From a virus (Duplodnaviria > Heunggongvirae > Uroviricota > Caudoviricetes): 37,467 nt of DNA. The notes beneath the pieces were generated by a model. It saw nothing but the letters and a program-made list of their open reading frames with translations, was not told where the DNA came from and ran no database searches. The stretch lies in IMG/VR virus record IMGVR_UViG_2563366946_000012; one strand, given 5' to 3'. Shown here piece by piece: positions 2,965 through 37,467 of the stretch (position 1 is its first letter; each line of letters begins with the position of its first letter). A program made the translations under genes and the position numbers.

Positions 2965-3302
2965 AGCAGCTCCTGAGTCCGGGTCTGTCCGTCTGAGCCT
3001 TTCCAGCTCACCCGGAGCGTAAGATGTTCGCCGTCGACGGCGGGTTTAACTGACATAAGCTGGCAGCGGGGCTCCCAGCGCCGGATGGCATCGACGGATT
3101 CGCGCACCACATGCGGAATGGCCCGGTCTACAGGCCAGTCGATATAAAGATGCAGATTGCTGCCGAACTCCGGGCGATGCGGGTCGCTGCCGCGGGGAGT
3201 CCGCAGGATAATTTGAATCGCCTGCCGGATATCATCCAGCCCCCGGACAATTTCGCCGGGAGCCTGCAGGGCTGGTTGCCAGAATACTGAGGTCGTTTTC
3301 AT
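2955..3302 (-). CDS. Baseplate wedge protein, GPW/gp25-like
   Basis: 115-aa ORF between the spike and J-like genes; size and position match the GPW/gp25 family. Confidence 0.65.
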   Translation of the reverse strand: MKTTSVFWQPALQAPGEIVRGLDDIRQAIQIILRTPRGSDPHRPEFGSNLHLYIDWPVDRAIPHVVRESVDAIRRWEPRCQLMSVKPAVDGEHLTLRVSWKGSDGQTRTQELLWR

Positions 3303-3356
3303 GGGGGCAGTATTGCCCCCGTGCGGGAACGCTGATATTAAAGGCGTTTAAGAAGC

Positions 3357-6188: not shown

Positions 6189-9139
6189 CAGCGGTACTCC
6201 TTACGTTGTTTCTGAGCCAGCAGACGCTCCAGCATTTTTTCCAGCTCATGCAGACTCATATTCAGGGCACCAGTCAGTCCTGCAGGCGCTGTGGTTTCCC
6301 TGCCATTGAGGAAAAACTGAGGATTAAAGCTGACCTGAATACCACCAGACGTTCCACCGCCGGTTGCAGCTGCACCACGGCCTGAATATCCGGCAGCCAG
6401 GATTTCAGACGAGGGGATACGGGGAACATCCGGTGTCATCTCATTTGCCAGACGTTGCCCTGGTAAAATCGATGCCCGGGTGGAGAGCGGAATAGCGGGC
6501 ATGGAAGACAAACTATTGATTACGGATCCGATCGCATTTTTAGCAGACGACATAAACCCGTTGATATCGGGCAACGGCATGCGGAAGTGAACATCTGAAG
6601 TGTTATCCCGTATTTCTGGCCCCTGAATGCTCACGGGCATTTTGGGGAGCAGTTCACTGGCCATTCGCTGACCGGCCAGAGCTGCAAGCGGAGTGCTCCG
6701 CTGCAGGCCAATGGCGGCCCCCTGCGCGATATTGTCACCAAAGCCCATAAACACGCGGCTCGGCGAATGAATGCCCAGCTTTTCGCTGAACCAGCCACTG
6801 ATGCTGTCGCCCATTCCGGTTACGCTGGTTTTGAGTGACTCCCATTTGTTTTTGATACCGTTAATCAGACCGTCGACAAGATGGCCACCGAAGTCGGTGA
6901 ACTTTGCCGGCAGCTCAACGCCGAGATATTTCAGCGCAGCTGCAAAGGCTTTATAGAGCAGACCTGCCGGCGACCAGTTAATCAGCAGCTTACCAGTTCC
7001 CACGATACCGCCGTTAAAGGCTTCCTGAATGTCAGCCCAGCGTTGTTTAAACCAGCTACTGATGCTGTCACCCATTCCGGTTACACTGGATTTGAGCGCC
7101 CCCCATTTGTTTTTGATACCGTTAATCAGACCGTCGATAAGATGGCCACCGAAGTCGGTGAACTTTGCCGGCAGAGCAACGCCGAAATATTTCAGCGCAG
7201 CCGCAAAGGCTTTATAGAGCAGGCCTGCCGGCGACCAGTTAATCAGCAACTTACCAATTCCCACAATGCCGCCGTTAAAGGCTTCCTGAATGTCAGCCCA
7301 GCGCTGTTTAAACCAGCCACTGACTGCCCCCCAGTTGCGGTAGATAAGGTAAGCTGCTGCCGCGACAGCGGTGATAACGAGACCGATGGGATTCATCATC
7401 AGCGCACGTCCAATCCAGAGAACAGCACGTCCGGCGAGCATAATTCCGCGAACCAGCCCCCCGGAGAGCACGCCACTCAGTGTTCTGGCTCCTCTGGCGA
7501 CGGCGCTAAATCCGGTCACCAGCCAGCGGAGCTTACCGCCTTGCCCCAGTGCGAGCGACAGACGAAGCCAGTTGGCCCGAAGTAAAACAGCATTTTTCCA
7601 GACACTTACAAAGGGGGAAATAAGGAGATTCAGCCCCAGTTTGAGACCAACAGTCGCTATCTTAATCGCAAGGAGCGCACTGATGAGCTTAAAAGCCCCA
7701 CTGACAAATTGCGGGTGAGTCGCTACCCAGTGTTTTGTCCCCTGAATGAGTGGGAGCAAGTCCTGAGTCAGAGAAATAAAAGATGGAGCTAATTGATCGC
7801 CCAGCGTAATTGCCAGATCGCGACTGCTGACCATAAGTGCTTTAGTGGCTTCAAGGGGAGATTTCAGCCGCTGATCATAAGCACTGGCAAGCAAATCGTT
7901 ATCCGCAGTCCTGAGAGCACCGGCGCGGATCTCGCGATATCTGTCCATGTTGGCCAGCATCGGGCGGATAAATGCCATGACCTGCATATCCGCGAACATA
8001 TCACCCAGACCAAAGTTTTTCGCCAGAGCCTGAAGTGCCTCATCTCTTGCCGTATCATTCTTTATTTTCATGGCGGATTTGAAGCCGGCCAGCGCTTCGG
8101 GGCTTTTGGCATTGAGGTAACGTTCTATAACACTCAACATCCCTTCAATCGGAGAGATCCCCGCAGCCTTATAACTCGCAATAGATCCCTGCAAATCAAT
8201 ACCCAGATCAGCAAACTGTTTCTGAGTATCGCGGGCAAAAATTTTGGTAAGAAAGTTTTTAAAATTATTGGCTGCCTCGTCGGTGGAACCTGCACCGATT
8301 TTTGCTATCTGGAGACTGGCCCCGATTTCAGCAACAGCCTCTTTTCCACTGGCAATACCCGCCATCATTGGGGCCAGGGACTGCATCCACTTGACCTGAT
8401 CCGGGATTTCAAATGACCCCTGGTCACCGGCATAAGCCATAATATTCTGAACGGCACCAAAATCTCTGGCCGCACCTTTCAGGGAGTTTTGCCAGACTGC
8501 GGCCACTTTTGCCCAGTCCTGAGCAGACGTGCGTGTTGCCGTTGCCGCGCGGGCAATATCCGGCATCAGAAAACCGATATCTGACACATTATCAATATTG
8601 TCGCTGATGAGTGAACCCACCGCCTCCTGCAGCTCATCCTGATACTGATTGTATTTAAGCGCCCAGCCTTTTATCTGTCCGGCAAGTGCATCCCGCGTTT
8701 TATTGTCATATTTTGCGGTGATCGACATATCAATCATTTTGTCCTGAAAAGACATGGACTGCTGAACGGCAGGGGAAACCGTATGATAAACAGTCTGTGC
8801 CATGCCATACGCTTCAATCCCCTGACCATACAGCGCCATGCGGTTAGCTTTCAGCGCATCACTGGTAGCGGATGCCGCTGACAGACGGCGCTGCTGGCGC
8901 ACAATTTGCTCCATGGTGCGGCTTACCCGCAGCAGCTCGCTGTTGAGATGCTGCATCCGGGAAGAACCCAGTTGACCATAACGTTCTGTTGCACGGGTTA
9001 AAGCGTTCTGACGTTCCTGCAGGCGGCGTGAGGTATCGCTCAGGGAATCAAGCGCACGGCGGGTACCGCTCATTGCAGAACGGAATGTGCTGCCAATCAT
9101 CCCGCCGATAACAACGCCGACTGAAAACTGTCCCGACAT
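6188..9139 (-). CDS. Tail tape measure protein
   Basis: 983-aa ORF, the longest in the tail module. Alpha-helical/coiled-coil N-terminus, hydrophobic central segments, internal repeats; lies downstream of the chaperone pair with a GGAGG RBS. Confidence 0.85.
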   Translation of the reverse strand: MSGQFSVGVVIGGMIGSTFRSAMSGTRRALDSLSDTSRRLQERQNALTRATERYGQLGSSRMQHLNSELLRVSRTMEQIVRQQRRLSAASATSDALKANRMALYGQGIEAYGMAQTVYHTVSPAVQQSMSFQDKMIDMSITAKYDNKTRDALAGQIKGWALKYNQYQDELQEAVGSLISDNIDNVSDIGFLMPDIARAATATRTSAQDWAKVAAVWQNSLKGAARDFGAVQNIMAYAGDQGSFEIPDQVKWMQSLAPMMAGIASGKEAVAEIGASLQIAKIGAGSTDEAANNFKNFLTKIFARDTQKQFADLGIDLQGSIASYKAAGISPIEGMLSVIERYLNAKSPEALAGFKSAMKIKNDTARDEALQALAKNFGLGDMFADMQVMAFIRPMLANMDRYREIRAGALRTADNDLLASAYDQRLKSPLEATKALMVSSRDLAITLGDQLAPSFISLTQDLLPLIQGTKHWVATHPQFVSGAFKLISALLAIKIATVGLKLGLNLLISPFVSVWKNAVLLRANWLRLSLALGQGGKLRWLVTGFSAVARGARTLSGVLSGGLVRGIMLAGRAVLWIGRALMMNPIGLVITAVAAAAYLIYRNWGAVSGWFKQRWADIQEAFNGGIVGIGKLLINWSPAGLLYKAFAAALKYFGVALPAKFTDFGGHLIDGLINGIKNKWGALKSSVTGMGDSISSWFKQRWADIQEAFNGGIVGTGKLLINWSPAGLLYKAFAAALKYLGVELPAKFTDFGGHLVDGLINGIKNKWESLKTSVTGMGDSISGWFSEKLGIHSPSRVFMGFGDNIAQGAAIGLQRSTPLAALAGQRMASELLPKMPVSIQGPEIRDNTSDVHFRMPLPDINGFMSSAKNAIGSVINSLSSMPAIPLSTRASILPGQRLANEMTPDVPRIPSSEILAAGYSGRGAAATGGGTSGGIQVSFNPQFFLNGRETTAPAGLTGALNMSLHELEKMLERLLAQKQRKEYR
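6770..7330. repeat. Tandem duplication of a 261-bp (87-aa) unit inside the tape measure gene (two full copies plus the start of a third)
   Basis: Units begin near 6789, 7050 and 7311; protein repeat SWFKQRWADIQEAFNGGIVG(I/T)GKLLINWSPAGLLYKAFAAALKY…GMGDSIS occurs twice in tandem. Confidence 0.85.
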
Positions 9140-9632: not shown

Positions 9633-9729
9633 GATTGTGCTCCTGTGTAAGTTCAGGGCAGTATGTCGGGAGAAGCGCGTGACGGATATTAAAGGAGATT
9701 AAGAAGAAGGGGCCGGAGCCCCTGTGATG

Positions 9730-10535: not shown

Positions 10536-11962
10536 CAGTTGCCCCCTTTCAGGGTTAACAGGTATTCCGAGGTGATCTCAGTCTCAAACGTCAGTCGCTC
10601 CAGCGGCGGCGGTGGCGTATATTTGTAACTCAGCAACAGGTGCCCGGCGGCCAGCTCCGTCTCCGGATTGCGGGCCGGATCAAACCAGCAACGGAAGCCC
10701 AGTACCGCACCATCACCAGTCATTTTGCGACCGTAGGCGTTGACCGACTCCGTCAGTGCATCAATCAGCGCCTGAGTAATCGGCATGTCGATGTACTGCT
10801 GGCTGAAATAACGAATGGACTCGTTGATCACATCACCGGTGCGGCGAACGTTCTCAAAGTTACGCATATGGGTGACCGTTGGCCATGCTGCCGTCCGGTT
10901 ACCCCACAGACGAAGGCCGCTGCCGTAACTGCTGAATACCGTGGTGATCCCCTGTTCGTTAAGCAGGTTCACCTCACTCTGCGGGTCATCAATCATCGCG
11001 GACAGCTGGCGCTCCACGCCGGTGATCCCCAGAATCTCCTGATTGGAGGATGACCACCAGTAGCCCTTGTCCAGATCGACTCTGGCACGCAGACCTGCTG
11101 CACGCTGGCTGAGCGGCTCCAGACGCTCTGTGTTTGTCACCGGGTCATATACCTTCACATGCGGATAGCACAGACGGACGCGGTCGGAGCTGGTATTGAA
11201 GTTGATGGTGCCTTCCGGGCCACGACCTGCCAGAGCCTGTGCAAAGGTGGTACCGACAGGCGCATCAATGTAGGTTACCGCGCCCAGCTTCTCTGCCATG
11301 GCGATAAGCTCAACTGCGACACTCTTCTGGGTGCAGAACACCGGCGCAATCAGAATTTTGGCGAAATAGCCGTACAGGTTGAAGCTGTCGTTAAGCAGCT
11401 TCATGCCGGTTCGGTTTCCGGCGCTGTTCACCCCGCCGATGATGTCCGCCGCAGTCACCTTCGACGGGTCCGCGTACTCATAGCTCACCTTCACGCTGCC
11501 ATCGGCCTCAATAGCCTTGCCCAGGTTCGTGAGCACACCCGCCTGCGCATCAACACGGTAGTCCGTGTTCGCCGTGTGGGTGGTGCTGCCTTCACTGTTT
11601 TTCACCACCACATTAGCGACAACCGGATGCGCCAGTCTGGCCTGCCCTGTCGATTTGTCAAAGGTAACCACCTCATCCTCGATCGCCGTTTTATGTTTCG
11701 CCGGGTCGAGGACGTTAATGACCAGAACGGTGCCTGCACCATGGTCATAAATCGCATCCAGCGCCTGCGGAATGGTAAAGCCGGTGAACTGGCTGCCAAA
11801 TGCCGCTGCGTCTTTCTCAGACAGGCACTGTACCAGCGTATTGACATCCCCCATCGGGGCGGTACCAATCAGGCCAATAACGGCAGATTTCACCGTTTTA
11901 ACCGGGCGGGCTCCGTTTTCCACCTCAATGGTTTCGACGCCATGCAGATAGTTAGCTGCCAT
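10535..11962 (-). CDS. Tail sheath protein
   Basis: 475-aa ORF preceding the tube gene; typical sheath size and order. Confidence 0.8.
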   Translation of the reverse strand: MAANYLHGVETIEVENGARPVKTVKSAVIGLIGTAPMGDVNTLVQCLSEKDAAAFGSQFTGFTIPQALDAIYDHGAGTVLVINVLDPAKHKTAIEDEVVTFDKSTGQARLAHPVVANVVVKNSEGSTTHTANTDYRVDAQAGVLTNLGKAIEADGSVKVSYEYADPSKVTAADIIGGVNSAGNRTGMKLLNDSFNLYGYFAKILIAPVFCTQKSVAVELIAMAEKLGAVTYIDAPVGTTFAQALAGRGPEGTINFNTSSDRVRLCYPHVKVYDPVTNTERLEPLSQRAAGLRARVDLDKGYWWSSSNQEILGITGVERQLSAMIDDPQSEVNLLNEQGITTVFSSYGSGLRLWGNRTAAWPTVTHMRNFENVRRTGDVINESIRYFSQQYIDMPITQALIDALTESVNAYGRKMTGDGAVLGFRCWFDPARNPETELAAGHLLLSYKYTPPPPLERLTFETEITSEYLLTLKGGN

Positions 11963-14430: not shown

Positions 14431-15546
14431 TTACAGGCAGCGTGCGACAGCAGCCTCATAGCTGATGCCTTCTTTTTTGGACAGGGCCACTGCTTTCTGA
14501 TGCAGGGCCAGACGCTCAGGATCGGCTTCCGCAAACTCTGCCACATCCACCTTCACCGTGTCGCCGACACGCTCTTTTGTGGCCTGTTCGGCGAAATTCA
14601 TCACCGGCTCCCCGTCGGAGAGCAATGAACGAAAGGCGGTGGCCAGCGGTGTGCGGCTTTCCCCCTCAGCAAACTCCACCGGCTTGTCGCCACCGGCGAC
14701 GGCATCCAGCAGGGCAACCACCACGGAGGAGGCGCGGGGAGCCAGACGGCCCTCTGCGACCAGTTTTTCTGCAAAGGCCACATTGTCCTTATGCAGTTGC
14801 TCCTGTCTGACCTGTGCATCACGCGCATCGCGATCAGCAGCCTGCTGCTTCAGGCGGCGGTTCTCCTCCTGAAGGGCTTCAATCTCTTCTTTTGTCATCG
14901 ATGATTCCTCGTTACTTGCGGAAGACGGCCCCGGGCCTGTCTCACTGAATTGTGCACCTGCTGCATCCTGCGACAGTGTGTCGCGGTACGCCTCTTCGCG
15001 CAGACTGTTGAGCTGCCATTCCGGCAGGACTTTTTCTGCCTCGTCCAGACTGAAGCGGGCGATCAGAAAATCGCGCAGCTTTCCCCACAGGGAGGCATTC
15101 GTGATGGCCTGCCAGTCGGCGAACTCCACCACACCTTCTTCCTGCTCACTGAAGGACACCTGTTTCAGCCCCTTGACGGAAGGTGGCTGTGCCCCGAGAA
15201 AGCCCACATGGCGAAGGTAGAGCACGCCGGGCTTCGGATTGGACGGTGAATCCGGGAGGTAGAAAGAGGCGGACACTTTTTTGAATCGTCCGTCGGTGAC
15301 CATCTCAGCAAACTGCGGGTCCAGCTGGGCAGGCTCTGCCATCAGATCGACGCCGCTGAGCGACAGGGCTTTCACCCAGCCCCACGCCGGGTCTTCCGTT
15401 CTGGGATGACCAATCACGAGTGGTGCTTCATGGACGGACGGGTCATAGGCTTTCACGCAGGCGGCAAGATCGTCTGGCGTGAACGGCAGTTTTTTGCCGT
15501 GCATATCGGTATGAGTACCGGCTTTAAAAATGTGAATGGCTGACAT
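14431..15546 (-). CDS. Head maturation protease / scaffold (Mu gpI-like)
   Basis: 371-aa ORF with globular N-terminal half and Glu/Ala/Arg-rich coiled-coil C-terminal half (…KEEIEALQEENRRLKQQAADRDARD…), the Mu I/Z arrangement. Confidence 0.75.
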   Translation of the reverse strand: MSAIHIFKAGTHTDMHGKKLPFTPDDLAACVKAYDPSVHEAPLVIGHPRTEDPAWGWVKALSLSGVDLMAEPAQLDPQFAEMVTDGRFKKVSASFYLPDSPSNPKPGVLYLRHVGFLGAQPPSVKGLKQVSFSEQEEGVVEFADWQAITNASLWGKLRDFLIARFSLDEAEKVLPEWQLNSLREEAYRDTLSQDAAGAQFSETGPGPSSASNEESSMTKEEIEALQEENRRLKQQAADRDARDAQVRQEQLHKDNVAFAEKLVAEGRLAPRASSVVVALLDAVAGGDKPVEFAEGESRTPLATAFRSLLSDGEPVMNFAEQATKERVGDTVKVDVAEFAEADPERLALHQKAVALSKKEGISYEAAVARCL

Positions 15547-15760
15547 TTTGCTGTCCCGCGTTATGTTGTCGGAGACAGTTTGTGAGAAATGCAGGCCCGG
15601 CGATTTTAATCTGCTTTAGAAAACATCAGGGGAGAAGGACAGGGAAAGCAATGCGGTGAACCGGAGGCGGTTATAAAACAGAGGCTGTAAAGCCTTTATA
15701 AAGGTAATACAGCCCCTCATTCGCTGGCAATGATAAATCACCCGCCTGAAGAGAGAAAAC

Positions 15761-16219
15761 TCAGCGACGGGCCGCTGATTCAAGATGGCGGACAATGGTA
15801 TCGAGGATGGGGATTACCACTTCAGGCTGTAGTTCTCCATCCCCCGTCACCGGCAGGAACGGGCGGGCCGGAAGTTCAACAGACTCATTACGCCCCGTTT
15901 TACCCCCGAACTGGTGAATGGCACCGTAAACAACGTTGGTCCCCACAACAGCCTGCCGGTCGTCATGGTCGGTTGATACTGACCCCATCAGACGCCCGGT
16001 ATCCTGCAGTGTCTGCCCGTCACGTTCTTCCGCTGCCAGCGAGGGGATCCACCCCGGACGCCCCTCATCAAGAAAGTTAAACTGTGTTTCCGCCAGCAGG
16101 GTTCCGGCGATTTTGCGCATCGCGGGCTCCAGGTCTGTGGCAGCAAGATCCAGCGCACGGAGGCTCCGGCGCAGGGATTTATCGTTAATGGTGATACTGA
16201 CCAGGTTATCGGAAGCCAT
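15761..16219 (-). CDS. Virion morphogenesis protein (Mu gpG-like)
   Basis: 152-aa ORF between the F-like and I-like genes, the position of Mu G. Confidence 0.7.
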   Translation of the reverse strand: MASDNLVSITINDKSLRRSLRALDLAATDLEPAMRKIAGTLLAETQFNFLDEGRPGWIPSLAAEERDGQTLQDTGRLMGSVSTDHDDRQAVVGTNVVYGAIHQFGGKTGRNESVELPARPFLPVTGDGELQPEVVIPILDTIVRHLESAARR

Positions 16220-17043: not shown

Positions 17044-18520
17044 GCAGACGTCCCCAGATATTTGCCACAAAGAGAATGCGGGCCAGCCGTTCCTGCAGAT
17101 CGTCCGTGTTCATCTGAGGGTAGAGCTCCGCCAGTTCGCCCAGCAGCTCAGTCGGGTTAACCCCGTTTTCGACCCGCTTAAACAGAGGTGCCAGGACGGG
17201 TTCCAGCGTGCCATTTAACACACCTCCGTTCATCAGAATGTCCAGCGCGTCGTCAAGCTGCTGCTGAGCCTGAATATCGGCATCAATCGCCTCGGCAAAT
17301 GACAGCGGCAGCATGTTATTCTGGCGTTCCGACGGTGGTGTCTCGTCAATATCGCCGTCCTGCAGCTGGTACTCACGCTTAAAGTATTGCGGGGTCAGAC
17401 GCAGACCCGCCCGGGTGAGTTTTTCGTCGCGGGTGGCGCGGGTGTCATCAATGGTCTCCTGTTCCCACATGGCCCAGACCGGACACGGCACATCGCCGAA
17501 GTTCAGGGTGACCACCGTTCTGATAACCTGATTCACTGCTGCCTGAATGATGTCCGCATCCGCATCGCGGATATCAGCCGTTACCTCCAGCCCGGCCTGT
17601 GCAGAGGCCTTGTTACTGTTCGCTTCCGTGGTCTGATTCTGACCAAGTAATGCAATGGAGATCTCACTGCGTGACAGTGTGATCAGCTCGCGGAATACCT
17701 CGCTGCTGTCCGCCTTACCATCCGCGGCTTTGAGTTCGATGCTGCTGTCATCGGGGATGGCGGCCACCGCGTCCTCCACCATCTGCTCCATGGAGTCCAG
17801 CAGTTTTTCAATCTCTGCATCATTTGCACCCCTCGGGTGCTTACCGATCACCCACGGGGAGCCAAACTTTTCGGCAAAGCGGAGCCAGAATTTCATCCCG
17901 CCTTTCTTGAAGGCGACCGGCCAGAAGCACATGGACAGGTCCGGGAAACCGTAAGGATTGTCATACGAGGCATCCTGTGCCGGCACCACGAATTTTGACG
18001 GTGACAGCAGCTCACCCTCCACACCCGCACCACGCGCCCGGAAGCGCAGGCAGTTGTCCGTATCAAACTGAAACCACTCAGGCGGTTTGCCGACAATATC
18101 CGTCACTGCCCACGCCCTGACCGAACGGCCCCACATGATTTCACAGGGCTGATACCCGTAGAGCACGGCATCACTCATCTCACCGATGATGCGGGACAGA
18201 TCCAGATCGTCGAGCATGTCGCGGATGAAACGGAAGACCCGGGCAGAAGCGTGACCGCGCTCCAGTCCACGCTCCAGTGATTTGAGCGCTGCTTTACGTC
18301 TGCGGATACAGCCCCCGACCAGCGGGTCGGTGCGCAGTTCGCGGTAGATACGGATATCCCGTCCCTGAGCCTTGAGAATGGGATCAGGATTGGGCAGATA
18401 CATGCCCAGTCCGTAAAAGTCGATCGCGCGGCTGCGGGAGGCAATCTGCGCGGTCAGTGATTTCTGAGGCTCAGAAAAAGCAACAAATTCATCGGGTGAA
18501 ACCCAGATACCCCTCGCCAT
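17024..18520 (-). CDS. Portal protein (Mu gp29-like)
   Basis: 498-aa ORF immediately downstream of the large terminase (overlapping stop/start), upstream of the F-like gene. Confidence 0.8.
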   Translation of the reverse strand: MARGIWVSPDEFVAFSEPQKSLTAQIASRSRAIDFYGLGMYLPNPDPILKAQGRDIRIYRELRTDPLVGGCIRRRKAALKSLERGLERGHASARVFRFIRDMLDDLDLSRIIGEMSDAVLYGYQPCEIMWGRSVRAWAVTDIVGKPPEWFQFDTDNCLRFRARGAGVEGELLSPSKFVVPAQDASYDNPYGFPDLSMCFWPVAFKKGGMKFWLRFAEKFGSPWVIGKHPRGANDAEIEKLLDSMEQMVEDAVAAIPDDSSIELKAADGKADSSEVFRELITLSRSEISIALLGQNQTTEANSNKASAQAGLEVTADIRDADADIIQAAVNQVIRTVVTLNFGDVPCPVWAMWEQETIDDTRATRDEKLTRAGLRLTPQYFKREYQLQDGDIDETPPSERQNNMLPLSFAEAIDADIQAQQQLDDALDILMNGGVLNGTLEPVLAPLFKRVENGVNPTELLGELAELYPQMNTDDLQERLARILFVANIWGRLHERDNG

Positions 18521-20115
18521 CAGAATCCCTCCAGCATACGGGCCGCCTGACGACGACAGCGTGAGCTTGCCTTCACCGGCCCTTTGTTAATTTCACGGCT
18601 GGCGAAATACGCCAGCGCCAGTGCGATGGCTGAATCCCCGTGGCGTTTACCACCGTCAGCCTTTGCTTTTGAGCGTTGCTCCGGCACGCGGGGGACACCG
18701 TTCACCACCTGAACGGCCCGCAGGTCATCCAGTGTGTCTTCATCCTTTGGTAAGTCCACCAGGTTACCGTCTTCCAGTGCAGCTTTGACCGGAGGCATAT
18801 GCTCCCGGTACCAGCCTTCAGTTGGCATCACCTGCTGAACCCGGCTGGAGCCGTAGCGCTGCATGGCGTATTCAGCCAGATAGGCACCATTACCACGGGC
18901 ATCAAACGCTGCACCCAGCAGACCGGGCAGGCCATCCATCAGATACCAGGTGATTTGCTCCTGCTGTCTGAACGGCACGTTACGCAGCTCCAGTACGAAT
19001 GGCACGCGTCGTACCAGGTTCTTCTCCTGCAGCAGGGGATAGTCCACCGACAAATCACCGCTACGGCCAAAGTCGCGCCCCAGGAAAGAGCGGGCATCAG
19101 CGGGGAGTGCCTCCAGCAAGGGTTTCAGATGCTCATCAAGCCAGTCCTGTGTCTCGTGGAAGCGAACCTCATCAGACAGCAGTTCATAACCTTCCTGACA
19201 GGTCAGACGCAATACCGGCGTATCAGCGGACATGCGGGACTCTATCAGGGCACGGGACAGCCAGGCGCCGCCACCGTTGGCCGGAATACAGTCAAGCTCT
19301 TCGGATGCGCCGGCAGCGTAGAATTTGTACACCGACGCCATCCAGGCCTGCTCGGATGCCTCTGACCATTCCTTCCCGGTGCGCAGACAAACGCGCCGGA
19401 ACAGCCCCTCAGATACGGCTTCCCGGAAAGTGATGCGATGTACGCTGCCTCCCTGACGTCCGGCACGGATATCCCCGATAAGCGTATTGAACGGATTGTC
19501 GTCACCGTCATGGGTGGAGATAACGCGTACCTTTCCCCCCCAGATAAGCATCGCCAGCGCCGCTTTCAACAGTTCGTCCAGTTGCTCATGGAACGCCGCT
19601 TCGTCGATAACAATAATACCCTGACGGCCACGCAGGTTAGACGGGCGGCTGGAGAGCGCAACAATACGAAAGCCGGAGTCAGGAAATTTGATGGTGTAAG
19701 TCTTGATGTGTTTGTCGTCGTCGTCCTCTTCCCAGAATCCTTCTTCAATTTCACTGGCCGCATAGTTGAATGCCCGTGCCCACATCGCACACGCCTGAAT
19801 GTATTCGACGGTCATGTCCTGGTTATAAGCGATGTAATACACATTCATCCCGCCTGCTGGCGCAGAAGAGGCGGCGGTCAGTACGTTATCGGATGCCTCA
19901 GCCCATGTAATACCGGTACGACGGCTCTTTTCTATCACCTTAAGCGGAGAGGTGTCTGCCACCCAGCGCTGCTGGTAAGGCAACAGAACGGGAGGGGCAT
20001 CCAGCGCCGAGGTATCGGGCAAAACGGGAGCAAGGTTATTCCTCCCGTCCATGGGACTCATCCCTTCGGGGCCGCCGCCAGCGGCGTTTAAAATCACTCC
20101 GGATGATTTTGTCAT
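18520..20115 (-). CDS. Terminase large subunit (Mu gp28-like)
   Basis: 531-aa ORF with Walker-B-like GIIVIDEAAF and a C-terminal acidic nuclease-type motif (…HGDSAIALALAY…); ATGA overlap with the upstream gene. Confidence 0.85.
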   Translation of the reverse strand: MTKSSGVILNAAGGGPEGMSPMDGRNNLAPVLPDTSALDAPPVLLPYQQRWVADTSPLKVIEKSRRTGITWAEASDNVLTAASSAPAGGMNVYYIAYNQDMTVEYIQACAMWARAFNYAASEIEEGFWEEDDDDKHIKTYTIKFPDSGFRIVALSSRPSNLRGRQGIIVIDEAAFHEQLDELLKAALAMLIWGGKVRVISTHDGDDNPFNTLIGDIRAGRQGGSVHRITFREAVSEGLFRRVCLRTGKEWSEASEQAWMASVYKFYAAGASEELDCIPANGGGAWLSRALIESRMSADTPVLRLTCQEGYELLSDEVRFHETQDWLDEHLKPLLEALPADARSFLGRDFGRSGDLSVDYPLLQEKNLVRRVPFVLELRNVPFRQQEQITWYLMDGLPGLLGAAFDARGNGAYLAEYAMQRYGSSRVQQVMPTEGWYREHMPPVKAALEDGNLVDLPKDEDTLDDLRAVQVVNGVPRVPEQRSKAKADGGKRHGDSAIALALAYFASREINKGPVKASSRCRRQAARMLEGF

Positions 20116-22659: not shown

Positions 22660-23039
22660 AGTCCTGTTGCCACAGCCAGACAGACCGCTGCAACAATCAG
22701 TGCACGGCGGATTAACGCAGCAGAAAATACAAGGTGAAGGCCGGTCTGCACAGGGAAACGCCCTTCAGCCATCAGCCTGTCTTCATGTTTCAGGTACTGA
22801 CCGGGACGGGCTTTGGGGAAGAGCGAACGGTCAAGCCAGTAACCCAGCACTGCTGCCAGCGTGATAAGTGCCAGCTTGTAGATCACAACAGGCAACTGCT
22901 GTGGCGAGACCAGAGCGATGATGCCCAGCAACAGCACTGAGGTCAGCAGCCAGCCGCTGAGGCGAGGTTTTTTAACAGGGGGAATGAATTTTTTCAGGTT
23001 TTTCATGTGTGTCTCCTCGTTTGGTGGAGACAGCATCAC
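22656..23039 (-). CDS. Putative holin/pinholin (first gene of the late operon)
   Basis: 127-aa ORF (GTG start in track; internal ATG giving MKNLKKF… near 23006) with 2-3 predicted TM helices, overlapping the endolysin start. Confidence 0.5.
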   Translation of the reverse strand: MMLSPPNEETHMKNLKKFIPPVKKPRLSGWLLTSVLLLGIIALVSPQQLPVVIYKLALITLAAVLGYWLDRSLFPKARPGQYLKHEDRLMAEGRFPVQTGLHLVFSAALIRRALIVAAVCLAVATGL

Positions 23040-23120
23040 AAATGTGGCGGGATACGGATTTTAAACAGCGTTAATAGTGAAGATGTAAACGTGCACTGCA
23101 TGATGACTTTGAAAGAACGA

Positions 23121-23148
23121 CCAGCCCGGTACCCGAACACCGGGCTGG
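23121..23148. promoter_or_regulatory. Perfect 10-bp inverted repeat with 8-nt loop upstream of the late operon (activator site or minus-strand terminator/insulator)
   Basis: ccagcccggt-acccgaac-accgggctgg read directly from the sequence, about 85-130 bp upstream of the holin start. Confidence 0.4.
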
Positions 23149-23194
23149 CCATCGCCCCACAGGAATGCGCTGTGAGCCGACCGAGGTTCAGTCA

Positions 23195-23253: not shown

Positions 23254-24024
23254 ATGAAAATGCAGACATTACCCATCGTTCCATGGATTGGTGGCAAACG
23301 CCGCCTTGCAAAACACATCCTGCCGTTGTTTCCGGCGCATGAATGTTATGTGGAGCCGTTTTGTGGGGCAGCAGCGCTCTATTTTCTTAAGGTACCCGGC
23401 AAGATCGAAGTCATTAATGATATCAACGGTGAACTGGTGAACCTGTATCGGGTGGTAAAACATCATCTGGAAGAATTTGTACGCCAGTTCAAATGGGCGC
23501 TGGTCAGCCGGCAGATCTACAAATGGCTGCAGATCACCCCGGAAGAAACACTGACGGATATCCAGCGTGCAGCACGGTTCTACTACCTTCAGAAGCAGGC
23601 GTTTGGAGGCAAGGTGGCGGAGCACAGCTTTGGTACCTCCACCATATCCCCGCCACGCTTCAACCTGCTGCGTATTGAAGAAGAACTGTCAGCGGCACAC
23701 CTGCGGCTTTCCAGAACGGTCATAGAACACATGGACTGGCAACAATGCATAGAACGATATGATCGCCCGCATACGTTGTTCTACTGTGACCCTCCATACT
23801 GGGGAACGGAAGGTTATGGTGTGGAGTTCGGACTAGAAAATTATGATCATATGGCAGATTTAGCACGCAGGATCAAAGGGAAGATGATTATATCGGTGAA
23901 CGATATCCCGGAAATGCGGCAGGCATTCAACGGTCTAAATATTCAGTCGGTTGATATCAGCTACAACCTCAAGATCACTGGCAAATCCAGTCGCAAGAAG
24001 GAACTCATTATCCTCAACTTTTGA
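23254..24024 (+). CDS. Orphan DNA N6-adenine methyltransferase (Dam-like, alpha class)
   Basis: N-terminal AdoMet-binding block (VEPFCGAAALYF), C-terminal catalytic DPPY (FYCDPPYWGTEGYG), about 256 aa; no adjacent restriction endonuclease gene. Confidence 0.85.
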   Translation: MKMQTLPIVPWIGGKRRLAKHILPLFPAHECYVEPFCGAAALYFLKVPGKIEVINDINGELVNLYRVVKHHLEEFVRQFKWALVSRQIYKWLQITPEETLTDIQRAARFYYLQKQAFGGKVAEHSFGTSTISPPRFNLLRIEEELSAAHLRLSRTVIEHMDWQQCIERYDRPHTLFYCDPPYWGTEGYGVEFGLENYDHMADLARRIKGKMIISVNDIPEMRQAFNGLNIQSVDISYNLKITGKSSRKKELIILNF

Positions 24025-25219
24025 CCGAATAGTAAGACTTCATGCAGTGAATCAAGTACTGCATGAAGTCAAGGGCTGGTTTTGTGTACCAAAAATAAAC
24101 AGTGATAGCGGTAATAATTCCCATAACTAGAACACCACGTATAATCCAGAACGTACGTTTCTGCGTGTCTAGTCGCGCAGAAATACTGCTAAATACACCA
24201 GCCACGTCATCTTTAATGAAGGAATATTCCTTATTAATCTGTTTTTCTTTGTATTCAATTTCTTCGCCTAAGGCCTTTATAGATTGCATCTGGTTCGAAA
24301 GTGCCAGCCAGATTAACGTTGCAGCAAAAATGCATCCCAGAAGAATTATTGTGTTTGTTATCCCTTGGCCTGACCATTTCGTAGCCACTTTGAATTGGGT
24401 AGCTACGATAACAGAGGCAACAGGAATGCCAAGTATATGGTTCTGGATATCTGAAAACGCTTTGTGGATTTTACCCATTTCTTCGACTTTTGCAGCACGC
24501 AGTTGATCCATTACTTTGTCATAAGAGAATCCAGAAGAGTAGATACGATACCCTTTCAGAAACTTTTCATGCAGACGCTGAATATTGTCCAGTAAATAAG
24601 CGAATACTAGAGGTGAATCAATTCCATCACTAACTGCTTGGATACTTTCAATCAGAATATCTAGCTTCTGATCCTTATGGGTATCATCATTGAAACAAGC
24701 TATAAGGTTATCAAGATACTCTCTTTGCAAATTTTGTACATTTTCTGCAGCGAAGTGCGGTAATAGCTTGATAACTTCTTTTTTCAGAAAAACTAACTGA
24801 CAAGTTGAGTTATCAAAGTAGGCCGCGGCCTCTTTTAGCAGGTTAACGAACTCGAGAATCTTCCGGTAGTTGCTGATGAAAACGGGGATATCTTCATCAT
24901 CATTACGAAACTTTGTTTCTAGGATGAAGTAATTAGCTGGCTCAAGGCACTGATGCTTTGGAGCATTTAGCAATTTTTCATGGGTGGAAAACACAAGTCC
25001 CAGTCCACTCCGTGGTGACGTCACACGTAGGATGATCGTGTTACCTGGAGCGATAGTGCCTGTATCAATAGAAAGACCATATTCACGAGGATCATCAAGC
25101 AAAGTATCAACCAGATCACAATCGGACTGATCTAAGAGCAACAGCGAACCGACACGAAACCCCTCTTGGAATTCCATACGACGATACAGAGCTGTCAGCA
25201 TCTCAAATGAAATCGCCAC
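24014..25219 (-). CDS. Cassette gene 2: protein with large cytoplasmic N-terminal domain and two C-terminal transmembrane helices (candidate effector)
   Basis: 401-aa ORF; hydrophobic helices near residues 295-320 (ITNTIILLGCIFAATLIWLALS) and 360-385 (FWIIRGVLVMGIITAITVYFWY). Start is 2 nt after the stop of the upstream gene; AT-rich by eye. Confidence 0.6.
   Translation of the reverse strand: MAISFEMLTALYRRMEFQEGFRVGSLLLLDQSDCDLVDTLLDDPREYGLSIDTGTIAPGNTIILRVTSPRSGLGLVFSTHEKLLNAPKHQCLEPANYFILETKFRNDDEDIPVFISNYRKILEFVNLLKEAAAYFDNSTCQLVFLKKEVIKLLPHFAAENVQNLQREYLDNLIACFNDDTHKDQKLDILIESIQAVSDGIDSPLVFAYLLDNIQRLHEKFLKGYRIYSSGFSYDKVMDQLRAAKVEEMGKIHKAFSDIQNHILGIPVASVIVATQFKVATKWSGQGITNTIILLGCIFAATLIWLALSNQMQSIKALGEEIEYKEKQINKEYSFIKDDVAGVFSSISARLDTQKRTFWIIRGVLVMGIITAITVYFWYTKPALDFMQYLIHCMKSYYSVKS
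24036..24087 (+). terminator. Rho-independent-type terminator hairpin downstream of the methyltransferase
   Basis: Perfect 13-bp inverted repeat gacttcatgcagt / actgcatgaagtc with 9-nt loop (about 24036-24070), followed by GGTTTTGTGT; overlaps the last codons of the convergent minus-strand membrane-protein gene. Confidence 0.5.
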
Positions 25220-25221
25220 GA

Positions 25222-26229
25222 TTAAACCTCAGTCATCCACATTTCCCTAAATTCTTCAGGTACATTACGTAGGGTGATAATATTTGTTTCCGGATCATAA
25301 TCAATATAGCCTTCAGTTTTCCCTTCCCGGTCAAACTTAAGTTCCCAATATTTAGACTTGCCTTTAAAAGATACCAGAGCCCGAATGACTCGACCATCAG
25401 GAACGAAGCCATCCGATAACTCCAACTCTTCAGCAGCAAGTTTACCAGATAACTCCTCGGGAGCCTGGGGCCAAATGGCATTAACAAGGGTTTCAAGACT
25501 AAGTGGTTCACCAGCCTTACTTAGTGCATGTAAGTGTTCAAACGCACTCTTAAGAAATGCATCTTTTTCAGCGCCGTCAAGTCCTTTCTCTGCCGCAAAT
25601 GCTTTTAAAACGTCACGTAACTTTTCAGACTCTCGTTTGGCGATTAAGACATCATTACAGCCGAGGAACTGTTTAAAATAGTTTGAAACATTACCTTGCC
25701 CCTTAAGAAAACTGATATAGCGCTCTGCGCCACTTTCCCACGCGGTTAAGTCAATGCGCCCAGCCATACGCAGCTTAGCAATATCAAGATAGGTACTATC
25801 TTGGATGTTAAAATCATCTGTGACAGTGGACCCAATGGTAGCGCTTACAATAGCTATCAACAGGTGTTCATTGTGTCCTATCACGATATTTGCAAAAAGA
25901 ACATAACCACCAGTAGCCATGTTTTCTCGCTGAGAACGTTCCGTCAGGTGATGCATCATTCGGCAGGAACTTTGGTAGAAATCATCAACACCTTCGAGAA
26001 AGTCCCCAGCCATTCGTTCCATAGGATAGTTATCCGTATCGCCTTCAAAATAGCCATAACCTTTACCTGTGCGTCCTGCATATTTTGCACAAATATCGTT
26101 TATAAGGCGCTGGGAGGCTTCAGTAACTAGACCTTCTTCAGGACTCAATCTCTCAGAAGCGTCTCCATTTTGTTGTTTGTCTAAAATGTGAACTACAACG
26201 TGTTTAACTTCAATGGTCTGCTCAGACAT
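25222..26229 (-). CDS. Cassette gene 1: YejK/NdpA-like (NA37 family) nucleoid-associated protein homolog
   Basis: 335-aa ORF with blocks recalled from E. coli YejK (…GGYVLFANIV…HLLIAIVS…YLDIAKLRMAGRIDLTAWESGAERYISFLKG…FKQFLG…). Good RBS (AAGGTGGA) before the ATG; begins 70 bp downstream of the repressor stop on the same strand. Confidence 0.55.
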   Translation of the reverse strand: MSEQTIEVKHVVVHILDKQQNGDASERLSPEEGLVTEASQRLINDICAKYAGRTGKGYGYFEGDTDNYPMERMAGDFLEGVDDFYQSSCRMMHHLTERSQRENMATGGYVLFANIVIGHNEHLLIAIVSATIGSTVTDDFNIQDSTYLDIAKLRMAGRIDLTAWESGAERYISFLKGQGNVSNYFKQFLGCNDVLIAKRESEKLRDVLKAFAAEKGLDGAEKDAFLKSAFEHLHALSKAGEPLSLETLVNAIWPQAPEELSGKLAAEELELSDGFVPDGRVIRALVSFKGKSKYWELKFDREGKTEGYIDYDPETNIITLRNVPEEFREMWMTEV

Positions 26230-26299
26230 TAGCTATCCACCTTATTTTTTATTGCTTAATGGCAAATAATTTCTGCTATATGTTCTCGTTAGGAACACA

Positions 26300-26707
26300 T
26301 TAACCCACATTTTTTAACCGCTCAATCGTTGCGGATAATTCCTTCAGTTGTTTTTCCATCTCAATCACACGCTGTTTTTCTTCAGCGCCTCGCATGAGAT
26401 CTCGCCGAACCTCAGGATCTAACTGGTTTAGAAGTTCAAGCATTTTAAGGTCTGACGGGCTGAATTGATGTTGTGTTGGTACAGCAACAATTTCTTTAGA
26501 TGGAATATGTTCTTTACCGGTAAGTAGCCAATCGATCGATACACCCAAATGGGTGCTTAGCGCAACAAGAGCCTCTGCGTTTGGTTCTCTCTCTCCACGC
26601 AAATAGTTTTGAAGTGAGCGATATGGAATTTTTGATAAGTCAGATAATGCCTTTATTGTCATGCCATTAGCATCCATCACTTCACGCAATCTCTCTTTTG
26701 TACTCAT
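26300..26707 (-). CDS. Prophage repressor, XRE-type helix-turn-helix
   Basis: From the internal ATG (MSTKERLREVMDANGMTIKALSDLSKIPYRSLQNYLRGEREPNAEALVALSTHLGVSIDWLLTG…) an HTH-type DNA-binding domain plus C-terminal coiled coil; divergent from the early operon. The track N-terminal extension (TTG start at 26803) is implausible. Confidence 0.7.
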   Translation of the reverse strand: MSTKERLREVMDANGMTIKALSDLSKIPYRSLQNYLRGEREPNAEALVALSTHLGVSIDWLLTGKEHIPSKEIVAVPTQHQFSPSDLKMLELLNQLDPEVRRDLMRGAEEKQRVIEMEKQLKELSATIERLKNVG

Positions 26708-26789
26708 TTGAACACATCTCAATTTGACACACTCATTTGGGTGTGTACAATAGACCCAATAGAGTACATCATAACCTAACAGGAACACG
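26708..26789. promoter_or_regulatory. Divergent repressor/early promoter-operator region
   Basis: 82-bp gap between divergent repressor and ner-like genes containing the inverted repeat ACACAC-n8-GTGTGT and the adjacent palindrome TGTACA. Confidence 0.5.
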
Positions 26790-26795
26790 GTGCAT

Positions 26796-27020
26796 ATGAA
26801 CAAACAACAAGTTCGGGCACGGCTGGTTGAACGAGGCAGTAGCTTGCGCCAGTTCGCGCTTAACGCGGGCTATGAACCACGAACAGTCACCCAGGCAGTC
26901 AGTCGCTGGGCTGGTAAAAGTGAACTACCTCGCGGTCGTTTGACTTATCGGATTTTGCGAGATCTATCGGTTGCAATAGGTAAAGAAGTTACCCCCGGTA
27001 TCCTTAAGGAGGCGTCATGA
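26796..27020 (+). CDS. ner: Ner-like DNA-binding early regulator
   Basis: …LRQFALNAGYEPRTVTQAVSRW… resembles the Mu Ner HTH; first gene of the early operon, about 75 aa. Confidence 0.65.
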   Translation: MNKQQVRARLVERGSSLRQFALNAGYEPRTVTQAVSRWAGKSELPRGRLTYRILRDLSVAIGKEVTPGILKEAS

Positions 27021-31199: not shown

Positions 31200-31469
31200 A
31201 TGAAATCCACCACAGGTATCAACCAGCAAATCAGTAAAGTGCAGTCAGCCATTATGGCGCTTAAGGCGACGAACACGGATGTACAAAGCATCACCATCAG
31301 GGGTAACAAACCTGTCATCCGCGTTTCCAGGAGTGCGCATTGCATGCGCATGCTTGAGCAGGGAAAGGCCTGTTATCTGTATACCGGACATGACCACAGG
31401 GGATATTTCCGTCAGGGCGTTTTCGAACTGCACGGCTGTCGCGTCGTGTGGCCGGAATCTTTGTGGTAA
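31200..31469 (+). CDS. Hypothetical early protein
   Basis: 89-aa ORF coupled to the ATPase gene; Cys/His-containing. Confidence 0.35.
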   Translation: MKSTTGINQQISKVQSAIMALKATNTDVQSITIRGNKPVIRVSRSAHCMRMLEQGKACYLYTGHDHRGYFRQGVFELHGCRVVWPESLW

Positions 31470-34015: not shown

Positions 34016-34457
34016 ACAACGTCTTATCCAGCTCATTCATATTGCCCGTAATGAACTGGGTATGGATGAAGACACCTACCGCCAGATGTTACAGGGGCTG
34101 ACCGGTAAAGCCTCAACCAAAGGAATGGATACCACACAACTAAACTGCGTGCTGGAATCCATGAAAAGGAAAGGCTTTCGCGTTAAGCCTGCCAGAAAAG
34201 CCAGCTCCGGTTTACCGCTGGATAACCATCCGCAGTCCAGGAAAATCCGTGCGCTATGGCTTGAAATGGCTGCTGCCGGCATTGTTCGTGACCGTTCAGA
34301 AAATGCATTAGCGCGGTGGATCAAGCGGGAAACGGGCATCAGCGCCCTGCGCTGGCTCAATACTGAACAGGCAAGCAGTGTTATTGAGAAACTGAAGAAG
34401 TGGCAGCACAGAGCTGCGGGAGTAAAACATGAGCGACCTGAATCAGTTTCGAAGTAA
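34005..34457 (+). CDS. gemA: GemA-like regulatory protein (Mu gp16 family)
   Basis: MMTKQRLIQLIHIARNELGMDEDTYRQMLQGLTGKASTKGMDTTQLNCVLESMKRKGF… resembles GemA; ATG preceded by AAAGGAG. Confidence 0.65.
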   Translation: MMTKQRLIQLIHIARNELGMDEDTYRQMLQGLTGKASTKGMDTTQLNCVLESMKRKGFRVKPARKASSGLPLDNHPQSRKIRALWLEMAAAGIVRDRSENALARWIKRETGISALRWLNTEQASSVIEKLKKWQHRAAGVKHERPESVSK

Positions 34458-34818
34458 AGGGCCGGAACTCTTGGTGGAGCTGGCACAGCATACCTCTGAG
34501 ACCGTTCGCGAGATTATTGATATTGAGCCCGCAATTGCCGACCAGATTGGTCAGGCCGTCGCGAACCGCATGATGCAGGTCTGGGGCGGGCAAAACGTTT
34601 ATTTCCCGATGGGCATGGTATGGAAGGTCAGTCAGCGCGACCGGGAAATCTTCAGGGAGTTTAACGGACGTAACCACCATGAACTGGCCCGCAAATTTGG
34701 TGTTTCGCTTCAGTGGGTCTACAGCGTGGTTAAGCGGGTAAGAAAAGAAGAACTGGATCGGATGCAGGGCAAGCTATTTGCTGATGAACCCGATGTAGAT
34801 ACGGAGAAAAAAGAGTAA
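34429..34818 (+). CDS. mor: Mor-family transcriptional activator (middle operon regulator)
   Basis: 129 aa; …QVWGGQNVYFPMG…RDREIFREFNGRNHHELARKFGVSLQWVYSVVKRVRKE… matches the Mor/C-family C-terminal HTH pattern; last gene before the prophage end. Confidence 0.75.
   Translation: MSDLNQFRSKGPELLVELAQHTSETVREIIDIEPAIADQIGQAVANRMMQVWGGQNVYFPMGMVWKVSQRDREIFREFNGRNHHELARKFGVSLQWVYSVVKRVRKEELDRMQGKLFADEPDVDTEKKE

Positions 34819-34847: not shown

Positions 34848-37467
<2,620 letters not shown>

Follow-up and report, generated by a model that had tools for sequence, protein, structure and literature searches.

Introduction

The late promoters of bacteriophage Mu possess -10 but no -35 hexamers, and the protein C binds to them at a 16-bp imperfect dyad located at -43.5 (PMC2582627). 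One of them, P_I, depends on C (Margolin, Rao & Howe 1989; annotation in AF083977). In the same record the -10 hexamers of the late promoters read TAGACT, CAAACT, TATCCT, and TAAGAT, and A/T-rich dyads lie 23–24 nt upstream of them, as TTAT-N6-ATAA in Pmom and TTAA-N5-ATAA in P_P. P_I itself occupies the end of the gap between genes G and I, in which AF083977 places, in order, the gyrase cut site (17879/80), a predicted terminator (17908–17953), and P_I (17977–18043).

A strong gyrase site (SGS) is found between G and I in both Mu and FluMu (PMC2628397; for Mu also PMC3820752 and PMC10052514), and a candidate SGS is known in the Pseudomonas phage Ab30 (PMC5977238). The SGS of Mu is devoid of a recognisable consensus. 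The gap between G and I measures 196 nt in Mu, and its counterpart in BcepMu, the gp31-gp32 junction (AY539836), is a gene-free interval of 202 nt.

The G-I Junction of a BcepMu-Like Prophage

The window, i.e., the whole stretch of DNA analysed here (37,467 nt; IMG/VR record IMGVR_UViG_2563366946_000012), includes a prophage whose right end is at 34979 (...AATCA), adjoining sslE, and whose left end falls outside, since the window starts within the tail-fibre gene. All the late genes in the window are located on the minus strand. With Escherichia phage PhiKM (genus Bcepmuvirus) the junction between the G-like and I-like genes shares 100% identity, and with Klebsiella phage KP12 86%; it was found in 637 of 5426 complete E. 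coli genomes, some of which carry as many as three copies, in agreement with the transposable nature of the prophage. The analysis of this junction brings the late genes of a prophage very common in E. coli under the Mu paradigm of control.

The preliminary description of this DNA had pointed to a non-coding gap of 214 bp (15547–15760) between these two genes, unusually long in an otherwise tight operon, and on both counts it was right: the gap is present as described and is the longest non-coding interval of the late block, whose other junctions mostly overlap or are within about 20 nt. The genes on its two sides and the features recognised within it and elsewhere in the window are listed in Table 1. 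In particular, the product of the I-like gene is 74% identical to proteins of relatives named "peptidase" by PGAP.

For the comparison, the G protein was used as query and a set of 62 genome loci and 80 viral contigs was obtained. The gap is gene-free and 194–215 nt long in all the Enterobacterales loci in which both genes could be placed (19 of 19), and its alignment behaves as a phylogenetic footprint in which two blocks, island A in the G-proximal half and island B in the I-proximal half, are conserved, the remainder having diverged, including a middle portion of about 50–70 nt with indels. The examination of both strands of the gap gave no conserved ORF and, with ARAGORN, no tRNA or tmRNA; Rfam 15, searched at a permissive E-value, returned two matches at chance level (E = 1.5 and 5; 12–15 bits versus gathering thresholds of 39–45).

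The gap is best read as mainly a terminator-plus-late-promoter junction, as in Mu and in the same place, and not as a lost anti-CRISPR locus. With fairly high confidence, it can be described as the regulatory region that separates one late unit of a BcepMu-like transposable prophage from the next, similar to the Mu G-I region, in which a putative activator-driven promoter comes after terminator-like hairpins. Like the whole Mu G-I region, it spans about 200 bp, lies near the centre of the genome, and has structured, perhaps A/T-phased DNA first and the predicted promoter last; it differs from Mu in the G-proximal half, which has no sequence similarity and contains a core, CTTTATAAAG...CTTTAC, without a Mu counterpart. 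The junction is ordinary in kind, and the conserved core is the remaining point of interest.

Table 1. Features of the G-I junction and related elements in the window (positions 1–37,467)
Feature	Positions	Strand	Basis or remarks
I-like protease/scaffold gene, first after the gap	14431-15546	-	tblastn to relatives; BcepMu gp32 is the "Mu I equivalent"
G-like virion morphogenesis gene (Mup31 homologue)	15761-16219	-	PF05069, E=1e-22; "Mup31, G" in PhiKM
Terminator-like hairpin T1, TCAGCGG-CCCG-TCGCTGA, over the G stop codon, followed by GTTTTCTCTC	15751-15778	-	consensus scan; putative function
Long interrupted hairpin with stems of 10 and 4 bp on the two sides of a 3x3 internal loop, UAUA at the apex, and GUUUUAU after it	15673-15717	-	fold
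Island A, core CCTTTATAAAGGCTTTACAG, including the 12-bp palindrome CCTTTATAAAGG (15693-15704)	15685-15704	-	conserved in relatives
Variable spacer between the conserved halves	15623-15672	-	poorly conserved, indels; cargo site in distant relatives
Island B, candidate activator box TTTCTAAAGCAGATTAAAATC; dyad CTAA-N6-TTAA at 15619-15606	15602-15622	-	four copies; conserved
-10 hexamer CAAACT, as the Mu P_I -10; no -35	15577-15582	-	fixed, 23 nt from TTAA
Predicted start of transcription for the late operon of I (head)	15569-15571	-	placed 6-8 nt past the -10
Inverted repeat CTGTCTCC (15578-15571)/GGGACAG (15557-15551)	15551-15578	-	predicted stem in fold
Predicted sister late promoter, lysis operon: box 23077-23057, -10 GATGCT 23037-23032	23032-23077	-	
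Predicted sister late promoter, tail genes: box 9705-9685, -10 CATACT 9665-9660	9660-9705	-	
Predicted sister late promoter, baseplate genes: box 3354-3334, -10 AATACT 3314-3309	3309-3354	-	
Mor/C-family transcription activator, end of the early operon	34429-34818	+	match along the entire PF08765 profile, E=1.3e-43

A Putative Late Promoter Module Repeated Ahead of Four Gene Blocks

An internal promoter was among the explanations offered for the gap in the preliminary description, and this one is supported by a Mor/C-type module in the I-proximal half that is repeated ahead of four late blocks. Island B reads TTTTCT(A/T)AA-N5-TTAA(A/C)A in the relatives (15622–15602), is followed by ACTG 22 nt further on, and is conserved in all of them and in BcepMu. 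A repeat search first paired two other intergenic sites (family D8), and a pattern search revealed four related 21-mers on the minus strand, versus 0.39 expected by chance. A further match to the 21-mer, at 31200–31180 and with two mismatches, is taken for a chance occurrence.

On its minus strand the window has four copies of the composite TAA-N6-TTAA-N27-CTG, at 23073 (lysis), 15618 (I), 9701 (tail), and 3350 (baseplate), and on its plus strand none (mean in shuffled sequences, 0.03). Each of these sites is intergenic and located 32–56 nt upstream of the first gene of its late block, and the spacing from the dyad to the downstream (A/G)CTG is exactly equal at all four. In the 80 IMG/VR relatives (1.46 Mb), 216 copies of the composite are on the late strand and 2 on the opposite one. 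A 20-kb locus has it at three fixed positions, and this applies also to the loci of Dickeya- and Pectobacterium-type phages (about 70% identity in G). In the 112 unique site sequences only the dyad and a hexamer nAnnCT(G) are conserved, the A in second and the T in sixth position being invariant, and the intervening 20 nt vary freely. The hexamer is CAAACT, CAGACT, or GACACT at the I site, GATGCT at the lysis, CATACT at the tail, and AATACT at the baseplate site. In three of the four dyads TAA-N6-TTAA can be read on either strand, and the centre of the one at the I site is 42.5 nt upstream of the predicted +1.

A sigma-70 scan of the gap on the late strand did not find a -35/-10 pair. As P_I of Mu, the module is situated after G and directly upstream of I, has CAAACT followed by G and no -35, is one of four late-unit promoters, is accompanied by a Mor/C-family activator, and bears an A/T-rich dyad 23–24 nt upstream of the -10. 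The differences concern the half-sites, which are TTAA/CTAA...TTAA here and TTAT...ATAA in Mu, and the dyad, which is 1 bp closer to the -10, a spacing within 1 bp of those of Pmom and P_I; moreover, the Mu promoters have been mapped, whereas those of the window are read from sequence.

The complete genome of BcepMu (36.7 kb) contains just two copies of TAA-N6-TTAA; both are on the late strand, one ahead of the holin gene and the other ahead of gp32 (I), and each is 23 nt upstream of an nAnnnT hexamer, the candidate activator box at gp32 being GTAAAGCCGATTAAAAG; variant boxes precede gp41 and gp49. The predicted start at the BcepMu junction coincides with the start-codon region, which suggests a leaderless mRNA or one with a very short leader. 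Because of the layout shared with the Mu late promoters and of these boxes of BcepMu, the segment 15622–15577 is read as the putative P_I homologue of the BcepMu-like phages. The resulting promoter model, T(T/C)AA-N6-TTAA, 23 nt, nAnnCT, at four sites with a single Mor/C activator, can aid the annotation of operons, the prediction of late expression for inserted cargo, and phage engineering. This promoter consensus for the BcepMu-like phages is a product of the present analysis and was not found described in the literature searched, to which the original BcepMu paper did not belong.

Downstream of the -10, an inverted repeat pairs the discriminator region with the Shine-Dalgarno sequence GGGA (15557–15554). 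Comparable complementarity is present in Mu P_I (CTGCTCA/TGAGCAG) and, at the lysis site, between GTCTCC and GGAGAC, where it reaches 9 bp in Pectobacterium-type phages; at the I site of the Dickeya lineage, CCTGTTT and AAACAGG form a complementary pair of another sequence. All these pairings were recognised by eye in the sequences. The repeat is only partly inside the RNA starting at the predicted +1 and therefore fits a simple promoter model poorly: such an RNA would be devoid of most of the 5' arm, so that only read-through RNA could form the stem. It may be speculated that the transcripts initiated at the promoter are those favoured for translating the first gene.

The position of this repeat bears on another way of reading the sites, in which the dyad box acts as an operator, its right half sharing bases with a -10 hexamer TAAAAT/TAATAT (15606–15601), and the late promoters are repressed or undergo MerR-style activation from between the -35 and -10 positions; the conserved ACTG would then belong to the 5' leader and pair with the Shine-Dalgarno sequence to control translation. 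At the lysis, tail, and baseplate sites, TAAAAT and TAATAT do agree well with a -10, and an RNA starting about 7 nt past them would hold both arms of the repeat that sequesters the Shine-Dalgarno sequence, although the leader at the baseplate site would still be only about 26 nt long. This arrangement is considered unlikely and was set aside owing to the loss of the critical last T at the I site, where most relatives have TAAAAG and the Pectobacterium types TAACAG, to the lack of conservation at -35 or further upstream, and to the mode of action of the Mor/C family, which binds at -43.5 and not over the -10 (PMC2582627). Moreover, P_I of Mu uses CAAACT as its -10, the hexamer that is also preferred here.

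The Activator and the Proposed Mode of Action

The activator gene of the prophage is preceded by GemA. Its product is 31% identical to Mu Mor and 37% identical to Mu C, and no Mor/C paralogue was found elsewhere in the window. With a single Mor/C gene, the one that closes the early operon, the cascade probably has two tiers, early then late, and not three, in contrast to Mu, which has a Mor-then-C cascade. The same single activator is proposed to drive all four late promoters.

The anatomy of the module, its four-fold repetition, its specificity of strand and position, its conservation, and the presence of an activator gene are observed; the mode of action is proposed as follows. Transcription coming from the lysis/terminase/portal/F/G unit would meet the hairpins at 15778–15751 and 15717–15673, which may work as terminators or attenuators, and about 55 nt past them the promoter without a -35 would restart transcription, now of the head-to-tail-tube unit. 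The single Mor/C-family activator would bind, as a dimer, the dyad at 15619–15606, presumably centred near -42.5, and in turn recruit sigma-70 RNA polymerase to CAAACT (15582–15577). The mRNA would start near 15570, and translation would use the Shine-Dalgarno GGGA placed 7 nt before the ATG of I.

Hairpins in the G-Proximal Half

The G-proximal half of the gap contains two hairpins. T1 has a 7-bp stem and a T-rich tail, GUUUUCUCUC. The second one includes the weak hairpin AGGCTTTACAGCCT of the preliminary description, which is present at 15695–15682 on the minus strand and corresponds to the inner part of a larger structure (15717–15680) with a minimum free energy of -20 kcal/mol (z = -3.87; 1 of 200 shuffled sequences as good). 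By position, this larger hairpin is the counterpart of the terminator annotated in the Mu G-I gap.

In the window, both structures combine a hairpin and a U-run on the transcribed strand; in the relatives, the U-run and stem strength of the second are not kept. An apex hairpin forms in all the lineages, with energies from -5 to -24 kcal/mol; in gaps of the Erwinia, Pectobacterium, and Dickeya types the second hairpin is weak, at -5 to -11 kcal/mol, and the T-run after it is good only in the lineage of the window, the KP12-like relatives having CCCCGCTTTG. Stronger terminator-like hairpins are located directly upstream of the lysis (23150–23119) and tail (9723–9708) promoters, and for this reason terminator-then-promoter is considered a recurring module. 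The simplest reading is that the hairpins of the gap terminate or attenuate transcripts of the late unit lying upstream.

A small RNA was also among the suggestions of the preliminary description. The gap would encode a small regulatory RNA, for example one derived from the 3'-UTR and ending at the island A hairpin, and a stable hairpin followed by a U-run about 40–90 nt past the G stop, with a strongly conserved apex sequence, speaks in its favour; however, the U-run is not conserved, the Rfam search provided no match, and no promoter of its own is evident. The orientation of the core, which is reversed with respect to the late strand in a distant group of phages (see below), argues against a strand-specific RNA. 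A small RNA is left without support and is regarded as very unlikely, although, on sequence alone, one derived from the 3'-UTR or from a terminator is conceivable.

The Conserved Core

Island A, in the relatives, reads CCTTTATAAAGG(C)TTTACAG (15704–15685). Within it CCTTTATAAAG is invariant in 20 enterobacterial gaps, with diverging flanks, and the 16 central bases of the core, TTTATAAAGGCTTTAC, are identical in BcepMu, whose G protein is just 44% identical. The core is situated at the apex of the second hairpin and is present in a single copy in the window; similarly, in the gp31-gp32 junction of BcepMu, TTTATAAAGGCTTTAC is at the apex of a 13-bp hairpin, and the flanks of the gap are unrelated in sequence to those of the window. 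When viral contigs were scanned for the 16-mer, it adjoined G/I homologues in every GC-rich contig that has it, and the matches in AT-rich contigs, which are without G/I homologues, are attributed to chance. In the distant group D, with G proteins 34–42% identical, the late strand reads the mirror arrangement GTAAAG-GC-TTTATAAAG. As to the location in the genome, the core is at 18746 of 36748 in BcepMu, i.e., 51% of the genome, and about 45–47% along the prophage of the window.

The identity of the core from E. coli to Burkholderia is not explained by a plain terminator. The 20 nt are constrained far beyond what a terminator needs and probably have a further sequence-specific role; this deeply conserved central element is a candidate for a cis element that organises the prophage domain. 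Several kinds of site were considered and rejected. As a sigma-70 promoter, on either strand, island A offers TATAAA and TTTACA, but the spacing to a partner hexamer, evaluated by eye, is inconsistent across lineages; as a further Mor box, its half-sites are 1–2 nt closer and variable among lineages, and there is no -10 hexamer 23 nt downstream. A repeat of the prophage ends or a transposase site was discarded, since the right end has no similarity and no other pentamer cluster occurs in the window, and the consensuses of IHF, Fis, LexA, CRP, and sigma-28 sites did not fit.

A further possibility, to be held tentatively, is that the G-proximal half around 15685–15704 is an SGS-like or DNA-wrapping site, together with or instead of a termination region. 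Gyrase or another DNA-wrapping protein would help the synapsis of the prophage ends for replicative transposition, and this function is compatible with the promoter model. Several features are in line with it. The SGS cut site of Mu falls in the same gap, 20 bp past the G stop, and the candidate SGS of Ab30 comes directly after G, according to the G position obtained in this analysis. Moreover, the core resembles the Mu SGS in its placement near the genome centre, between G and I, and its occurrence in either orientation relative to the late strand, as in group D, is what is expected of a site acting as double-stranded DNA.

The phasing of A/T tracts at 9.5–12 bp was also evaluated, and the Mu control was passed only with 50-bp windows, in which the right arm of the SGS takes second place in Mu. 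The region of island A ranks within the top 0.14% of the window and the top 0–0.7% in 16 relatives, figures to be read knowing that a random position reaches 0.2% with P of about 0.03; on the other side, it is only in the top 9% in BcepMu, and in the relatives the phasing derives largely from the conserved core itself. A substitute gyrase score built on the consensus of Sutormin et al. (PMC6379681, the paper of the 130-bp matrix) missed the SGS in Mu and was discarded.

Among the alternative sites tested in place of the Mu SGS, only a site from a Sakai prophage could replace it (PMC10052514), a result that counts against an SGS-like function of the core. The core and the Mu SGS are, in addition, not similar in sequence. 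Reportedly, a site that failed in the work of Oram and Pato, in 2004, came from the BcepMu-like prophage of S. Typhi CT18. Should the core be such a site after all, a central motif conserved in the whole family would give a handle on what makes an SGS-like site work. In a more specific form, it is conceivable, but rather doubtful, that CTTTATAAAG(G/C)CTTTAC is a dedicated central cis-acting DNA site of the BcepMu-type phages, either an SGS analogue or the site of a DNA-organising protein.

The Anti-CRISPR Position and the Cargo of Distant Relatives

The junction between G and the protease/scaffold gene is also known as a place of anti-CRISPR (acr) and associated (aca) genes in Pseudomonas Mu-like phages. 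This statement of the preliminary description is true of JBD5, in which AcrE1, AcrF3, another acr, and a wHTH gene are found between gp33 and gp38. The further idea that the gap of the window is a decayed acr-aca or accessory locus, of which a small ORF would be the surviving anti-defence gene, agrees with the position of the acr locus in Pseudomonas Casadabanvirus phages such as JBD5, although position alone does not define a family. The ORF had been given 32 codons; it exists, on the minus strand, with its ATG at 15720 and its stop at 15616–15618, but has 34 codons.

No gene of the acr or aca type and no Aca-type operator was recognised in the gap, and neither the ORF nor the part of the peptide downstream of the core is conserved. 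In particular, an aca-like HTH gene is missing and would not fit in 214 bp, an acr promoter is likewise missing, and there is no similarity to the Aca1 inverted repeats of JBD5, GGCACANTGTGCC. The ORF is not preceded by a Shine-Dalgarno sequence, its ATG is CTG in the KP12-like lineage, and it is absent in a further relative (L017) and in BcepMu. Its peptide is kept only where it translates the core (FIKALQP), the rest diverging with indels; in fact, the ORF is open only by virtue of the translation of the core. A 59-aa ORF containing this peptide had no match in Pfam.

The comparison of the enterobacterial G-I junctions, which had been indicated as a check, revealed no inserted small genes: gap length and sequence blocks are kept in all the enterobacterial relatives, with no ORF signal, against the notion of a remnant and in the way that the preliminary description itself had named as refuting. 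A gap held at 194–215 bp in Enterobacterales, and at about 200 bp in BcepMu and Mu, does not follow the pattern of a decaying insert. The decayed-locus explanation is thus largely refuted and highly improbable. What the gap has in common with the acr-aca operon of JBD5 is the place between the G homologue and the protease/scaffold gene; it differs in having no genes, no Aca operator, and no acr promoter, and is a junction of the ancestral type and not a derived locus. The acr position of the Pseudomonas phages therefore corresponds, in this lineage, to the ancestral terminator/promoter junction.

The spacer between the two islands is empty of cargo in the prophage of the window and in all the enterobacterial relatives sampled. 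On the other hand, distant BcepMu-like relatives carry cargo genes at exactly the G-I junction, and to this extent the positional intuition behind the anti-CRISPR idea has some merit. In five of these loci (L155, L167, L261, L168, and L240) the cargo is placed between island A and the TAA-N6-TTAA box. It consists of a 270-aa protein of a family not known in L167 and L261, interrupted by an IS in L155, of a RES-domain protein on the opposite strand in L168, and of a 143- or 167-aa protein in L240; a 148-aa zinc-ribbon protein is the cargo of L064. Since the cargo lies exactly between islands A and B, the variable spacer is the insertion point of cargo in the wider family. A 10-nt motif, CTCCGGTTCA, is common to the spacer of the window and to group D; it is lineage-specific and its presence is probably due to chance.

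Leaders and Flanks of the Predicted Late Promoters

The late promoters are predicted Mor/C-type sites, each made of an activator box and a -10 hexamer, and reading by eye indicated complementarity between the bases located directly 3' of the hexamer and the first gene's Shine-Dalgarno region (Table). The same arrangement was read by eye at the Mu promoter PI (L147, about 18026-18050), where CTGCTCA pairs with TGAGCAG; the complementary pairs, by the same reading, differ between lineages. Judging from the sequence, the full stem between the post--10 bases and the Shine-Dalgarno region could form only in read-through transcripts.

At the baseplate late promoter (3302-3314, minus strand), only the six bases GCCCCC separate the -10 hexamer AATACT from the ATG of the 115-aa baseplate gene; therefore, the predicted start is the A of the start codon, and the mRNA of this gene is predicted to be leaderless. 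The same arrangement, here CAACAT-GGCCGC-ATG, precedes gp49 in BcepMu (L269) and probably also occurs ahead of gp32 in that phage.

The lysis and tail late promoters are each immediately preceded by a strong terminator-like hairpin, consisting of a stem and a T-run (Table); at the tail site the T-run extends into the activator box. In the lysis promoter of BcepMu (11505-11535), the -10 hexamer CAAGAT is flanked by a perfect 6-bp inverted repeat, GCCGTC...GACGGC.

Complementary pairs and hairpins associated with the predicted late promoters of the window
Feature	Position	Strand	Remark
Complementary pair CTGTCTCC/GGGACAG	15551-15578	minus	read by eye
Complementary pair GTCTCC/GGAGAC	23011-23031	minus	read by eye
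Strong terminator-like hairpin, 14-bp stem + T-run	23119-23150	minus	directly upstream of lysis late promoter
Strong terminator-like hairpin, 6-bp stem + T-run	9708-9723	minus	directly upstream of tail late promoter

Cargo Genes at the G-I Junction of Distant Relatives

Distant relatives (L167, L261, L155, L168, L240, and L064) carry cargo genes at the G-I junction, flanked by the conserved core on one side and the I promoter on the other. One encodes a 270-aa protein with no match in Pfam or PADLOC, and its copy in L155 is interrupted by an IS3-type element; another, on the opposite strand, encodes a HEPN/RES-NTD plus RES-domain protein, and the remaining cargo genes have small protein products (143-167 aa and 148 aa).

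A 690-bp contig filed as Actinacidiphila cocklensis (JANCAF010000089.1, L004) carries a gene for a G protein that shares 98% identity with that of the E. coli prophage; the contig is most likely a contamination of that assembly.

Other Regions of the Window

The GC content falls to 39-44%, compared to about 57% elsewhere, in the interval that separates the lysis promoter from the early/repressor region (23900-27000); this stretch, which contains minus-strand ORFs of 401 and 335 aa (24014-26229) and within which the Escherichia phage PhiKM and the window differ, is probably an accessory island. The right prophage end, ...TCTAATCA (within 34936-34979), adjoins sslE of the host. The motif (A/T)ATNTATCTCA occurs twice in subterminal position (34936-34947 and 34958-34969), and both copies look like transposase-binding repeats. 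Two structural genes contain tandem repeats: the tail-fibre gene, with which the window begins, has 168/300-nt units (166-1101), and the tape-measure gene has a 261-nt duplication whose copies are 93% identical (6789-7310).
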